Assembly (NCBI GenBank): GCA_022627515.1
Contig: JAKEGK010000125.1
Coordinates: forward strand, 1-54,789
Reading direction: 5' to 3'
DNA from: Gammaproteobacteria bacterium
GTDB taxonomy: Bacteria > Pseudomonadota > Gammaproteobacteria > SZUA-152
Length of the DNA: 54,789 nt
The notes beneath the pieces were generated by a model that searched no databases, had not been told where the DNA came from, and saw nothing but the letters and a program-made list of their open reading frames with translations. The position numbers were made by a program, and so were the translations under genes. Below are positions 1,956-27,986 of this stretch, in pieces (the stretch's first letter is position 1; each line of letters starts with the position of its first letter).

Positions 1956-4900
1956 CTAAAACTTGCCAATCACGTTGATAAACAGGCCGTGACTGTCGTA
2001 ATCCAGATCCGTCAGGTCATCGGAGAAATCCGTGAAGTTATAGCCGGCGCCCATCTTGATATGCCGGTCGAAATGGCTATAGATGGCTAGCAGAATACCG
2101 CTGCGGGAATCACCCGCGGCCGGTATGTCAAGCAGGCGGCCTTCCAGTAAGGCATCCCATTGATGGGCAAAATGCCAGTCGCCTCTTAAGATATATAGCG
2201 ACGCATCACTCGCAAAGAATTGCTGATTTTCACGGTCAAGGCTCAACTGACCGAAGCGATGCGCGTATTTGCCACCCAGGGTCCACTCGCGTGTCACGTC
2301 ATACATGACGTCAGCGGAAACCACATGGCTCTTCTGGATATATTGCGCGGCGCTATTGTTCAATGTTATCTGATCCGTACCTGGCATATTATAGAAGTAC
2401 GTGTATTTGAACAGCGCATTCAACGCATCATTACTGACAGGCCGGAACGCGTAACCCACCACCGCTTCGGTAAAATTGCCGTTGTAAAAATCACCGAGCG
2501 AGCTTTCACTTTGCGAGTAATTCAGTTTTCCGATAATCCGCCAGTCCGGGTTCAACTGGTACTTGATGCTGTTTTTCATCAACCATGTCGTGCGTTCGGC
2601 GAAGGTGGTATCCGGCTGTTCCGTTTCGTCAACGCGGTATTCCAAAGCGCCCGCATACGTGAATGATTCAAACTTATAGCCAATCTTGAAACCTGCCGCG
2701 GTGCGGTTGGTTTCAGCGCCGGTGTTGTTATCCTTGAGTGTGCCGATATCAATGTGGCCGCCTAAGTTCAGGTTGTCAGTCACGGCAAGGTCAACACCCA
2801 TTGCGTGGGTCAGCCCGGTTGGCACATCGCCATGCGTATAGCGTTCTTCCAGGTAGATGCTGGCGCTATCGGAGTACTGGCTCTTGAATCCGGTCGCCAT
2901 ATTGCCCTGGCGCGCTTTAACACCGTTGTCCGTGCGTTCATTCTCCAGCGCATAGCTGACATAAAGATCCGTGGCGTCCGTCATCCTGTAGCCGCTGCCA
3001 AGTTTGACGGCTGTACCCAGATCACCAGAGGATAATTCACCATCCAGTTTGAAACGGTCTGTGGCGCGGTATTCGCCGCCTACACCCACGCGGCCGTTAT
3101 CGTCACGATTACCATCAACTTTGGCAGTATCCTGAATATAACCATAGGCCAGCCAATGCTCGCGGGAATCGAACGTTGTTCTGAACGCTACATCAGTACG
3201 CTCACCCTCTTGCTGGGTCAGAGGCGCGGTAGGTGAATTGTCGGTGCGTTTGTCATTGCGCACGCCTAATCCGAAAGTCCAGTGCTCACCCATGAGATAA
3301 TCAACATTCATTTCGAGGGCTTCCGACTCAAGCGCGTTTTCCTGTTCCATCGCATCGGCCTTGAGTTTGACATTCACGGATTCATACACCGGCATTTGCA
3401 GCATTACACCAGTCTGCGTGGTATCGGTCAGTGCGATCAGTCCGGGCGCGGAATATCCTGCATCCAATTGCTGGTTAAAGAAAGTTAGCGTGCCGTTTAT
3501 GCCATCAAAGATATCTTCCATACGGATGCTGATATCCACCCGTTGGCCTTTGGCCTCAACATCAGTGCCGGGCGCTAACGCAAATTCGTTAAACTGGTAA
3601 CCGCCGTCCGTGGAGGACAGTGTCGAAGACACCAGGCCCAGACTGTTGGACTGTTCCAGTTTAAGCCAGGTGCCGGCGGTTTTTCTAAACGTTAAATCAT
3701 AGGCGCTAAGACTGGTTTCATTGCCGGCTGAGTCCTGATCCTCCATCGTGAATCCCAGTTTCGCAAGATCGTTAATCCAGTAATGCATCCGGCCGCCGGT
3801 GGTTACATCGTTCAGCTCTTCAAATCCGGGTGTGTATTCGTAACGCACCAGCAGGTAAGCATGATTGCCGCCATAGTCTCTGCTGTCGACCAGGGTGTCG
3901 GATGCCGCCGATGCGGAAAGCGGTTCACTGAGCATAATCCGCCCCTGAATATAATCGATATCATAGTCCAGGCCATGGGTCAGGTTTTTCACGCCAACCA
4001 CCAGTCCGGATACCGCGTCACGGATTTCTATGCGCACCCGCTCGGAACCGGTGAGGATATCCTGGTGCCGCAGATAGTACAGTGACCCGCCGGTGCCGCG
4101 GAATTCGTCCCGCCCCGCCAGGGTACCCGGTTCAGCGGCAAACAGGTTGGCGGCAAAGCGCTTCTCGCCAAAGGCTGTGGCAGCAGTGGTTTCATAGTTG
4201 ATGTTTGCGCCATAGAGGCCACGGTCCACGTGGGCAAGATTGTTATCCAGGTAGGCAATATCGAAGTTGCCCCACAAGCCATAGTTCCAGTCTTTTTGCC
4301 ATTTCAAGTAGAACTTGCCGGATGTCGGCGCGTCCTCTTCCACGGTGCTGTCGTCACCGAAGGTCGGATAGTAATAATCCGGATCAATGCGGCGGAACAA
4401 GGCCTCGGGGGACTTGTTCATGAAGTTGGAGAACAACTCATCCACCGGTCCTTCACGGGTATCGGCACTGGCGGTCAGCACCGAGTCATTGGCAAACCTG
4501 CCTTTAATATAGAAAGCCAGGCGGCCGTCGATGCCAAACTCACCGCGGTAATCATCGTCATTGCCGGTAACCAGTTGCGCCGGTCCACTGGTTTCGTCCT
4601 GGCTGGCGGTCAAGTCCGCAATACCGACGTAGAACCAGTCAGTTTTATCCAAAGATAAGTCGCGTTGATAAACGCTGCCGTTACCCGCATCATCGGTGAT
4701 GGCCACTTCCACGGTATGCAGGCCGGAAGGCAGAATAAACTCGCCGGTGAACTCGCCATTGCCGGCTACAGGCAGTTCACGTCCCGCAAACCACAGCTTA
4801 AAGCCTTGCGGAACATCCTGGCCGTAAATCCGGACCGCACCACCATGCAAGGGAATGTTATTCAGCGCCAGTCGGTTCTCGCCGTAACCCACCAGTAATT

Positions 4901-27502: not shown

Positions 27503-27986
27503 GGATCTCCACGAATTGCGGTCCCACGCCTTTAGTAACTGAATGGGAAGCGGCGCCGGTTTTTTTACTTCCGCCGGATTTTCCTGTAACCGTCACCTGC
27601 AGGTTATGATCACCGGTACGGACATTGCCGGTAAACACACGCTGCACACCGCCTTTTTGCATGGCGGACACTTCCTTAAAACTATATATGTGGTGGGCCA
27701 TATCCTTGTCATCCAGCTTCAGCTGAATCGCATCTGGCTCAAAATCCGAGCCTTTTTCCAACGATACGAAAAAGGATATTTGGGTGTTGGAAGGAAACAA
27801 TAATTTCTCTTCCAGCAGATTAAGTTCTGCGGAAATTCCCAGTACATCCTTTTTGATGTCCTGCACCTGTTCATCCAGTCCCTTTATTTGTTCCTTGGTG
27901 ACCGGTTCCGCAATGGCTGGACCGTTAATCGGAGAAAATACCAGCGCTATACACAGCAATAAAAATAGATGAGTAACTTTTTTCAT
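27465..27986 (-). CDS. Secreted hypothetical protein (short coiled coil plus beta-sandwich), first gene of the motor operon
   Basis: Signal peptide, the segment LDEQVQDIKKDVLGISAELNLLEEKLLFP, then a beta-rich domain. Tightly linked to the next gene. Confidence 0.8.
   Translation of the reverse strand: MKKVTHLFLLLCIALVFSPINGPAIAEPVTKEQIKGLDEQVQDIKKDVLGISAELNLLEEKLLFPSNTQISFFVSLEKGSDFEPDAIQLKLDDKDMAHHIYSFKEVSAMQKGGVQRVFTGNVRTGDHNLQVTVTGKSGGSKKTGAASHSVTKGVGPQFVEIRVSGSGIEFKNW

Follow-up and report, generated by a model that had tools for sequence, protein, structure and literature searches.

A Glt/Agl-type core motor operon conserved beside a giant passenger–anchor protein with a predicted very large outer-membrane barrel

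Introduction

The gliding machinery of Myxococcus contains a core complex that Luciano et al. (2011) defined as gltC, gltD, gltE, gltG, aglR, aglQ, and aglS. In the available passages of that paper (PMC3169522), the function of the core is given as unknown, its genes are reported to be clustered in gammaproteobacteria, one betaproteobacterium, Geobacter, and Fibrobacter together with 'an additional gene' lacking myxobacterial homologues, horizontal transfer of the core is reported, and gltF is described as restricted to Myxococcales and Bdellovibrionales. The accessible parts of later work suggest that the core may be a basal transport machinery (Wartel et al. 2013; PMC3858216) and give its original function as not known (Islam et al.; bioRxiv 10.1101/2020.07.22.216333). 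Here we describe such a core of nine genes (g1–g9), adjoined by the gene of a single 5192-residue protein (hereafter designated the giant), in a 54,789-nucleotide stretch of DNA from Gammaproteobacteria bacterium (lineage SZUA-152; assembly GCA_022627515.1, contig JAKEGK010000125.1, positions 1 to 54,789), which is referred to as a whole as the window. A first-pass annotation of the window, made from the letters alone, had called the function of the gammaproteobacterial core homologues largely unknown, as is also stated by Luciano et al. in the passages cited above.

For the Myxococcus machine itself, the passages at hand (PMC11761067) state that GltG carries cytoplasmic domains and describe AlphaFold models that place the C-domain of GltG on GltD, with a strand added to it by GltF, and that show GltC gripping the outer-membrane (OM) barrels at their N-terminal periplasmic segments. 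The work of the motor is described there, and in excerpts of bioRxiv 10.1101/2020.07.22.216333, as passing through GltC/D/G to an OM barrel-adhesin complex. As shown below, the locus in the window resembles the published core in its motor genes, and one subtype of this core is accompanied almost always by a giant putative surface-protein system ending in a predicted OM barrel of unusual size.

Results

Conserved linkage of the core with the giant

By open reading frame (ORF) calling, ten ORFs, all on the minus strand, span 27986..1956 of the window, beginning with g1 and ending with the giant. The gaps between them are 65, 11, 55, 15, 63, and 38 nt according to the ORF coordinates, and 4-nt overlaps occur twice, between g2 and g3 and between g7 and g8; if the longest start of g2 is taken, g1 and g2 overlap by 38 nt. 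The common orientation, the gaps of 65 nt or less, and the two short overlaps agree with the first-pass annotation, whose list of an ExbB protein, two ExbD proteins, three tetratricopeptide repeat (TPR) proteins, and an AgmX/PglI-C protein was matched by our family searches. Likewise, no gene for a plug, a TonB-dependent receptor, TolB, Pal, or a small barrel was found within the operon, as had been noted.

The association of the giant with the motor genes held in a synteny check: 33 of the 44 related loci kept the link, with two different gene orders and in three phyla. These loci were collected by a scan with g9 using one genome per species (g9 identity, 35–78%) and come from Gammaproteobacteria, Nitrospirota, Desulfuromonadales, and unclassified Pseudomonadota metagenome-assembled genomes (MAGs). 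The order of g1–g9 was kept in all 44 loci as far as each of them reaches. A giant, or its C-terminal anchor part, adjoins the core in three ways: giant-like sequence lies directly downstream of g9 in 14 loci (tblastn), in 14 others the C-terminal module of the giant has the same orientation as g1 and stops a short way upstream of it, and five more have a large ORF downstream of g9 that was unmatched by blast and contains DUF11 above the Pfam cut-off. All seven divergent downstream ORFs tested for DUF11 were positive, two of these seven loci having tblastn matches as well. In L008, L009, and L047 an open-ended ORF with a signal peptide starts right after g9; the flank is shorter than 0.4 kb in L012, L041, and L045, and L030 and L037 do not include the side that carries the giant in Nitrospirota.

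When contigs were followed further, complete giants were seen downstream of g9 in three genomes (G003, G004, and G005), and the N-terminal part (passenger) and the anchor were seen directly upstream of g1 in two (G006 and G007). The order g1–g9–passenger–anchor is that of Gammaproteobacteria, and the order passenger–anchor–g1–g9 was found in a Desulfuromonadaceae MAG and a Nitrospirota MAG. Since these two orders are circular permutations of each other, the linkage between motor and giant has survived rearrangement. The link is conserved.

A distinct core subtype accompanies the giant

The same components were searched for in a second, independent set of 401 genomes sampled evenly across the class. 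The barrel part of the giant was matched in 35 genomes of 401, and g9 in 74 of 400. The g9 matches fall into two types: a 'long' type, with a cytoplasmic domain and a match beginning at residue 34 or earlier, in six genomes including the window's own, and a 'short' type of 300–400 aa, matching from about residue 154 on, in the other 68 of the 74. The five other genomes with a long g9 (G304, G341, G035, G248, and G130) coincide exactly with those giving the top five barrel matches (E 1e-175 to 3e-252). Four of the five carry g1–g9, passenger, and anchor on a single contig and in the same orientation; G130 is the exception, its g9 contig breaking off 2.7 kb after g9 within an open ORF of 744 aa, with the rest of the giant on another contig. 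The short type was never close to a barrel module, the two being on different contigs or 73 kb to 1 Mb apart in 13 of 13 genomes. Thus, one core subtype, that with the long g9, almost always adjoins the giant.

Barrel modules also occur apart from the motor. In 16 of the 35 barrel-positive genomes no g9-like gene was detected at E <= 1e-8, and among these are near-complete genomes that nevertheless have close anchors (G289, G154, and G321; E ~1e-160). Conversely, the window's own genome (G000) contains a second full core at G000:C89:3866-12827 (minus strand), comprising a g1-like gene, GltC/D/E-like TPR genes, a g5-like gene, ExbB, two ExbD genes, and a short g9 of 316 aa that lacks the cytoplasmic domain. 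No giant follows; downstream lie a convergent gene, read by eye as TonB-dependent-receptor-like, and a gene read by eye as cobalamin-adenosyltransferase-like. Giants without a motor and this core without a giant show that each module can exist alone.

Linked and unlinked anchors were also compared for their OmpA-like domains. Among motor-linked anchors, three OmpA stretches were counted in the window and two in G035, and among unlinked ones a single stretch in G289, G154, G326, G229, and G204, two in G150, and none in G285, G348, and G175. A close anchor in G307 has three, its contig ending inside the passenger and no long g9 being found in that genome. The linked anchors thus tend to have more OmpA domains (2–3 versus 0–2).

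Several further pieces of the window's own genome resemble the core or the giant. A third, partial core at G000:C66:38642-42862 consists of g1-, g2-, and g3-like genes with 28–36% identity and is cut by the contig end; the ORFs just upstream of it end in aromatic residues, as OM proteins do. Other g3-like pieces are present on C61 and C280. At G000:C306:2-6982 a paralogue whose ORF runs off the contig start, and which is at least 2327 aa long, has the same C-terminal module at 27% identity. Neither this paralogue nor its counterpart on G007:C9 (43% identity) has core genes in the flanks covered (14–18 kb for G007), and the idea that every such barrel paralogue (~2000–2300 aa, C306 and G007:C9) has its own motor was dropped in view of these flanks. 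Contig C270 carries an apparently complete Tol-Pal cluster (TolQ, TolR, TolA, TolB, Pal, and YbgF, judged by eye from ORF size and order), and, about 4 kb downstream of this Tol-Pal-like cluster, G000:C270:7109-9097 (minus strand) encodes a secreted protein of 663 aa in which the AgmX/PglI C-domain occurs twice.

Passenger, anchor, and their fusion in the giant

The giant (1956..17534, minus strand; 5192 aa) can be divided into four parts, all encoded on the minus strand. Residues 1–3380 (7395..17534) form the signal region and a passenger stalk of DUF11, isopeptide-D2, DUF7619, and SdrD_B-type immunoglobulin (Ig)-like domains; residues 3381–3514 (6993..7394) form a conserved passenger C-terminal domain that is the end of the passenger where the system is split; residues 3515–4150 (5085..6992) contain the fusion junction, which has no internal signal peptide, the anchor N-terminal motif, and three OmpA-like domains; and residues 4151–5192 (1959..5084) contain a beta-rich pre-barrel region and a C-terminal barrel module of ~900 aa, which ends in ...INVIGKF. 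Pfam searches matched DUF11 in 8 + 3 stretches (counted in two halves of the protein that overlap by ~200 residues), DUF7619, SdrD_B, and three OmpA stretches, the last with 86.2 bits for PF00691 against a gathering score of 27.2 and with 144 bits for a TssL-type OmpA model against 139.8. The isopeptide D2 model TIGR04226 scored 255 bits against a cut-off of 30 in six stretches; isopeptide bonds are predicted by this hidden Markov model (HMM). Within the passenger, a segment of ~1.9 kb (~630 aa) is duplicated in tandem (11850-13175 versus 13740-15083; 73–74% nucleotide identity). The N-terminal parts of the passenger diverge strongly among related loci, and the anchor is conserved.

The true start of the giant may lie up to about 65 codons inside the ORF, because its homologues align only from residue 40–80 onward and the stretch resembling a signal peptide extends to about residue 67. 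The gap between g9 and the giant would then be up to ~200 nt; the 38 nt given by the first-pass annotation is correct for the ORF coordinates and may be too short for the genes themselves. No terminator-like site was found between g9 and the giant on the minus strand. The ORF opens, at 17334-17534 of the window, with two hydrophobic stretches that precede the predicted cleavage at about residue 67; either the signal region is an extended one or the ORF start is set too far upstream.

Passenger and anchor are two ORFs in all 14 other gammaproteobacterial genomes examined, motor-linked or not. Two MAGs with the upstream arrangement are split as well, so that the two parts are separate in 16 of 16 other genomes examined. 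A split anchor has its own Met, a signal-peptide-like segment, the motif N-[ST]-E-x-x-L-P ... W, 0–3 OmpA domains, and the C-terminal module; in the window and in L007 passenger and anchor are joined in frame, and the signal peptide of the anchor is missing. In wider database searches, fusions proved common too, DUF11 and OmpA being found together in at least 120 proteins of 2889–6030 aa, and split anchors of ~1700 aa with only PF00691 accounted for 3788 matches among 8000 scored candidates. The anchors are named 'OmpA family protein' or 'flagellar motor protein MotB' in the databases. The first-pass annotation had united barrel, peptidoglycan anchor, and adhesin in one chain; the OmpA-like domains and a predicted barrel are indeed present at the end of the giant, but the single chain is a lineage-specific fusion, and two genes are the commoner form among the genomes examined.

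The passenger C-terminal domain is ~130 aa long (...LRLSYLADVE...RL..IK...W...CCY.L.IE.E) and was aligned in 17 rows (alignment A6), motor-less systems included, with 40–81% identity to the window. Searched as a profile against PDB sequences, it gave PomB at E 0.28, which is not significant. Judging from the domain order, the end of the passenger and the start of the anchor must lie on the periplasmic side, because the fusion places the C-terminal domain before the OmpA-like domains and the split anchors have a signal peptide. The stalk, if exposed, would therefore cross the OM with its C-terminal end held inside.

Some anchors and giants call for separate mention. Those of two MAGs (G002:C35:3798-6967 and G008:C6:1564405-1567532) are broken by several stops and frame changes; TGA, TAA, and TAG interrupt the G002 matches, and the G008 match is made up of many short frames. 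Assembly errors or gene decay may account for this. Three giants with 70–78% identity to the window's module (P0002, P0007, and P0123) are labelled Kaarinaea lacus, a cyanobacterium of the Nostocales in the taxonomy, and more likely derive from contigs of an associated gammaproteobacterium in that assembly.

The C-terminal barrel module

The barrel was modelled with AlphaFold2 as residues 4280–5192 from an alignment of 36 sequences, replacing a 17-sequence model of residues 4151–5192 (predicted local distance difference test score, pLDDT, 55.5). The model has a mean pLDDT of 77.2 and a predicted template modelling (pTM) score of 0.71, and is nearly all beta, with ~45 strand elements, mainly long antiparallel strands. 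The strand number was taken from the DSSP listing, and ~40 strands is an estimate. Searches with Foldseek and VIA-align returned OM barrels only, partially or loosely matched (LptD, BtuB, FecA, MtrB, SprA, SlpA, porins, Tom40/VDAC, and ushers), with E >= 3.5e-07 at template modelling (TM) scores <= 0.27 and Z scores up to 13.9 over ~260–430 residues. The match to SprA is weak and generic (E 2.6e-05; TM at most 0.24), TonB-dependent transporters appeared as partial generic fold matches to the barrel model only, and FhaC, CdiB, and AIDA-I as partial arcs (Z 9.7–11.7).

The barrel part of the giant has no Pfam match. In a protein atlas its nearest relatives are unnamed 'outer membrane protein' clusters of ~850 aa (score 0.97). 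Representative clusters that match the module number 5768 (2586 of them at E <= 1e-30), with proteins from ~800 to 7400 aa; it is always C-terminal in the matched proteins and serves other passenger types also, for example Big_13 repeats in G175. The module is thus predicted, on the structural model, to be a very large OM barrel of roughly 40 strands without an assigned family.

The motor genes

All nine core genes lie on the minus strand. The first, g1 (27465..27986), encodes a secreted protein of 173 aa without a known family; it is kept in every related locus that reaches its position, with 40–82% identity among homologues, and its profile found nothing among PDB sequences. At the GltC position, g2 (25316..27502) encodes a periplasmic TPR protein of 728 aa with a signal peptide (TPR_16, 4.9e-08). 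Its alignment A5 has 21 rows and 54% mean column identity and excludes L036, in which the stretch held a stop codon; alignments A1 and A2 exclude L018, L036, and L028, whose genomes were already represented. At the GltD position, g3 (21879..25319) encodes a TPR lipoprotein of 1146 aa with YbgF/CpoB-like and BamD-like repeats. It passes the TIGR02795 tol_pal_ybgF model (4e-32; 111 bits against a cut-off of 90.1; four stretches), matches TPR_6 (1.3e-21), falls just short of the BamD model (81.0 bits against 81.4), and matches the PorW/SprE model weakly (35 bits against 250). At the GltE position, g4 (21046..21813) encodes a TPR lipoprotein of 255 aa (TPR_12, 2.1e-22). The lipoboxes, read by eye, are LISC in g3 and LSAC in g4.

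The next gene, g5 (20714..21034), encodes a secreted protein of 106 aa without a family, whose core (residues ~40–103) is 35–87% identical across related loci. Signal peptides of g1 and g5 were read by eye, and neither protein has a Pfam or NCBIfam match. The gene occupies the place of gltF in Myxococcus, and the first-pass label 'GltF-like' describes this position only, because gltF is restricted to Myxococcales and Bdellovibrionales in the passages available (PMC3169522).

The channel gene g6 (20008..20658) encodes an ExbB/TolQ/AglR-type protein of 216 aa (PF01618, 1.4e-24) with three hydrophobic segments by hydropathy, far under the cut-offs of the TolQ and ExbB equivalog models. It is followed by two genes for ExbD/TolR-type subunits, g7 (19504..19992; AglQ-S-type, 162 aa; PF02472, 1.1e-14) and g8 (19010..19507; 165 aa; PF02472, 3.1e-13). 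The membrane segment of g8 contains an Asp (ALVDVF), which would correspond to the proton-relay Asp of TolR/ExbD, and g7 has Asn at that place.

The last core gene, g9 (17573..18946), encodes the 457-aa TonB/TolA/GltG-like transducer of the long type, composed of a cytoplasmic coiled coil (residues 1–177), a membrane helix (~180–198), a K/P/E-rich linker, and an AgmX/PglI C-domain (363–453). The C-domain passes model NF033768 (65.8 bits against 40) and is 53–86% identical in 19 homologues; g9 stays under the cut-offs for GltG (48 bits against 650) and TonB_C (20.7 against 24.6), and the C-domain profile gave TonB among PDB sequences at a non-significant E of 0.17. In its N-terminus no forkhead-associated (FHA) domain was found, only weak coiled-coil-type matches (YwqH-like and SMC), and a protein atlas gave nothing usable for it (best score 0.76).

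The traits of the core complex are recognisable in this set, namely a MotA/ExbB-type gene adjacent to two ExbD genes (g6–g8) and a GltG-type g9 with linker and AgmX/PglI C-domain. The three TPR genes fit GltC/D/E in size and order, at scores far under the equivalog cut-offs for GltC (g2, NF033756, 24 bits against 450) and GltE (g4, NF033758, 35.8 against 225). The TolQ/TolR/TolA equivalog models also scored far under cut-off on the operon proteins. The first-pass match of the gene set to GltD/E/F/G plus AglR/Q/S can be kept as an assignment to the core-complex type including AglRQS-like genes, but GltF does not belong to the published core in the passages cited (PMC3169522). No family match to gltA, B, H, K, F, I, J, or CglB was obtained for the ten genes or their flanks, the search being confined to the operon region.

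Flanking genes and base composition

The operon is flanked by a transaldolase gene and a divergent response regulator gene. The latter (28649-29299) was considered as a dedicated regulator and rejected, as it is not conserved beside the related loci. The G+C content is 0.52–0.555 across the giant (window 2001-18000), versus 0.43–0.51 over most of the rest of the window, which could be due to repeats rich in Thr, Ala, Gly, and Val or to foreign origin. A few kilobases from the operon, at 33205-34968 (plus strand), a 587-aa protein with MtrC/MtrF-like decahaem, magnetochrome, and cytochrome c7 matches is encoded, which suggests an extracellular electron-transfer cytochrome.

Discussion

A proposed motor action on an anchored adhesin

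Proton-driven stators of the TolQRA, ExbBD-TonB, and AglRQS family energise a transducer, and the ten genes could be read as one envelope machine made of two modules. In the first, the Glt/Agl-type core, the g6 channel with g7 and g8 would turn proton flow into movement of g9, whose C-domain would reach the OM side, where g3 and g4 (TPR lipoproteins), g2 (periplasmic), and g1 and g5 (small and secreted) would provide a scaffold; by analogy with Myxococcus, g9, g3, g5, and g2 would extend as far as the anchor's periplasmic base. In the second, a stalk of ~3400 aa made of isopeptide-type Ig-like domains would be held in the periplasm by its C-terminal domain, docked on or fused to an anchor of three OmpA-like domains and a ~40-strand barrel, which the stalk presumably traverses. 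By engaging the periplasmic base of the anchor and exerting force or a conformational change on it, the motor would tension, shift, or release a load-bearing adhesin stapled to peptidoglycan. On this view the assembly would not serve as a secretion pump; it would represent a simple and self-contained precursor of the focal-adhesion machine of myxobacteria.

That the two modules are functionally coupled is, in our view, highly probable. That the motor does mechanical work on the base of the anchored adhesin is put forward tentatively, as a reading that has a good chance of being right and about as much of being wrong, if not somewhat more; exposure of the stalk, its passage through the barrel, the contact between motor and anchor, and the output are what we infer. 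Mechanical work is favoured because many genomes evidently export and anchor such proteins without such a motor, because linked anchors tend to have more OmpA domains, because the linked g9 has an added cytoplasmic domain (a coiled coil of ~170 aa), as does the gliding GltG, and because the stalk is of the isopeptide-hardened kind expected for a tension-bearing part. A complex prediction for mature g2, the g9 C-domain, and residues 3515–3704 of the giant scored 0.00 and, having been run without controls, weighs neither way.

Several points weigh against this mechanical reading. We know of no gliding or surface movement in these lineages. Three loci (L033, L038, and L049) have no giant on either side within the available flank, and the query used detected no barrel module in the L033 and L049 genomes, which are MAGs of unknown completeness. 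The trend in OmpA number comes from 12 proteins and overlaps between the groups (G150 has two), and an anchor with three peptidoglycan-binding domains might just as well be wholly passive. Co-transcription of g1–g9 with the giant is putative, being judged from spacing, surface exposure of the stalk is an assumption, and the contact between motor and anchor is a proposal. Orthology to the Myxococcus proteins, finally, would lean on the phylogeny of other genomes by Luciano et al., because the Glt equivalog models all score far under cut-off.

Alternative explanations

Instead of pulling on a finished structure, the motor might act as TonB or GldLM/PorLM do, opening or driving the giant barrel, with the passenger, which has a Sec signal, threaded out through it and retained afterwards. 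The parallel to the type IX architecture, the barrel module of ~45 strand elements, the conserved passenger C-domain, and the weak PorW/SprE match of g3 would all fit such an energised export or gating. Against it stand the 16 of 35 barrel-module genomes without a g9-like gene, the 13 more that have only the short type, located elsewhere, and a giant that lacks a match to the plug or TonB-dependent-receptor families. Barrel genomes without a linked motor imply that export and anchoring are not generally motor-dependent, unless a housekeeping TonB or Tol system substitutes, and we therefore consider this explanation unlikely.

Motor and giant could also be neighbours without physical coupling, carried on one horizontally transferred or co-regulated surface island whose modules work alone. 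Horizontal transfer of the core is indeed reported in the passages cited from Luciano et al. (PMC3169522), the G+C content of the giant exceeds that of most of the remaining window, and each module has been seen by itself, the core without a giant on C89 and the adhesin pair without a core, only the short type being present in 68 of the 74 g9-positive genomes. This is made improbable, however, by a linkage held in two gene orders, three phyla, and at 39–75% g9 identity, by the distinct g9 type of the linked cores, and by operon-like spacing on one strand; passive hitch-hiking seldom outlasts such divergence and rearrangement. Still less credit can be given to a Tol-Pal-like helper of assembly or envelope integrity, acting in biogenesis only by inserting the barrel and setting the three OmpA domains on peptidoglycan as Tol-Pal positions Pal, which would suit the YbgF and near-BamD scores of g3, the TolQRA-type motor, and the greater OmpA number of linked anchors, since equally large barrels occur in anchors without a motor, an apparently complete Tol-Pal cluster is encoded elsewhere in the genome (C270), and the cytoplasmic domain of g9 would be left unexplained.

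Implications

The motor family and the idea of an envelope machine combining motor and adhesin are already known. Within the literature searched, the conserved pairing of one core subtype with a passenger/anchor system and the recognition of a large unnamed barrel family are new; no paper linking the core complex with a DUF11/OmpA giant was found in the open literature, supplements being outside the scope of the search. It is conceivable, at somewhat less than the confidence given to the mechanical reading, that the passenger/anchor proteins form an unrecognised class of OM adhesins with thousands of members, each with a ~40-strand barrel, OmpA feet, and a stalk held by its C-domain, and that in one lineage they are the native OM partner of the ancestral Glt/Agl core motor. 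If this is true, it would explain what the core complex does and show the point of origin of myxobacterial focal adhesions and perhaps of the spore-coat Nfs machine. According to the passages available (PMC3169522, PMC3858216), the seven-gene gliding core has been seen as widespread since 2011 without a known function, cargo, or OM partner. A conserved candidate partner makes the function of the core experimentally approachable, and anchor homologues are listed for isolates with names, among them Thiohalomonas denitrificans and an Ectothiorhodospiraceae isolate. Should the coupling be mechanical, the locus would encode the simplest known machine joining proton flow to a load-bearing surface filament and would offer a model for the evolution of focal-adhesion-type motility.

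Comparison with known systems

With Gram-positive pilins and adhesins of the RrgB/Cna type, the giant shares TIGR04226 D2 domains and DUF11/TIGR01451 repeats, as matched by HMM; unlike them, it is barrel-anchored in a diderm envelope. With type V systems, including two-partner systems and inverse autotransporters, it shares the arrangement of passenger and barrel in one chain or as a pair, and inverse autotransporters also have a periplasmic peptidoglycan-binding domain. It differs from them in a module of ~900 aa with ~45 strand elements, compared with 12–16 strands, and in ~1000 aa of periplasmic domains between passenger and barrel; the autotransporter, POTRA, and ShlB-type Pfam families gave no match in the giant.

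Type IX secretion in Bacteroidota combines a proton-driven motor of the ExbBD family and TPR lipoproteins with the SprA translocon, a barrel of 36 strands, and with cargo that carries a signal domain at its C-terminus. The present system resembles this gliding and secretion apparatus (GldLM/PorLM, SprA, and SprB) in having a motor, TPR lipoproteins, a huge single-chain barrel, and a giant adhesin-like cargo with both a Sec signal and a conserved domain at the C-terminus. The only homology found is a weak TPR match, and unlike SprA the barrel here has OmpA domains and can be fused to its cargo. Among the operon proteins, the only match to type IX families was the 35-bit PorW/SprE one, no genome-wide search having been made. 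The TonB-dependent transporter families PF07715 and PF00593 had no match at E <= 0.01 in either half of the giant.

To Tol-Pal the locus is similar in its TolQ/TolR/TolA-type motor, its YbgF-like TPR protein, and its OmpA-like peptidoglycan-binding domains as the class of target on the OM side. The operon differs in having neither TolB nor Pal, in its two different ExbD-like subunits, and in the position of the OmpA domains within the barrel protein.

Agl-Glt of Myxococcus xanthus, in the passages available (PMC11761067), likewise has a TolQR-like motor, a transducer with a TonB-like C-domain, and a TPR shaft (GltC/D/E) reaching a barrel-adhesin complex. Unlike Agl-Glt, g9 has a coiled coil where Myxococcus GltG has FHA domains, and barrel, anchor, and adhesin are combined in one giant, or in two proteins, as opposed to five small proteins. 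The locus agrees with the Glt/Agl core as described in the accessible parts of PMC3169522 and PMC3858216, in having one ExbB-like and two ExbD-like proteins, a GltG-type protein, three TPR proteins, and extra small genes that lack myxobacterial counterparts, all in one cluster. Those published passages name no OM partner or cargo for the core, whereas the long-g9 subtype described here is tied to a passenger/anchor pair.

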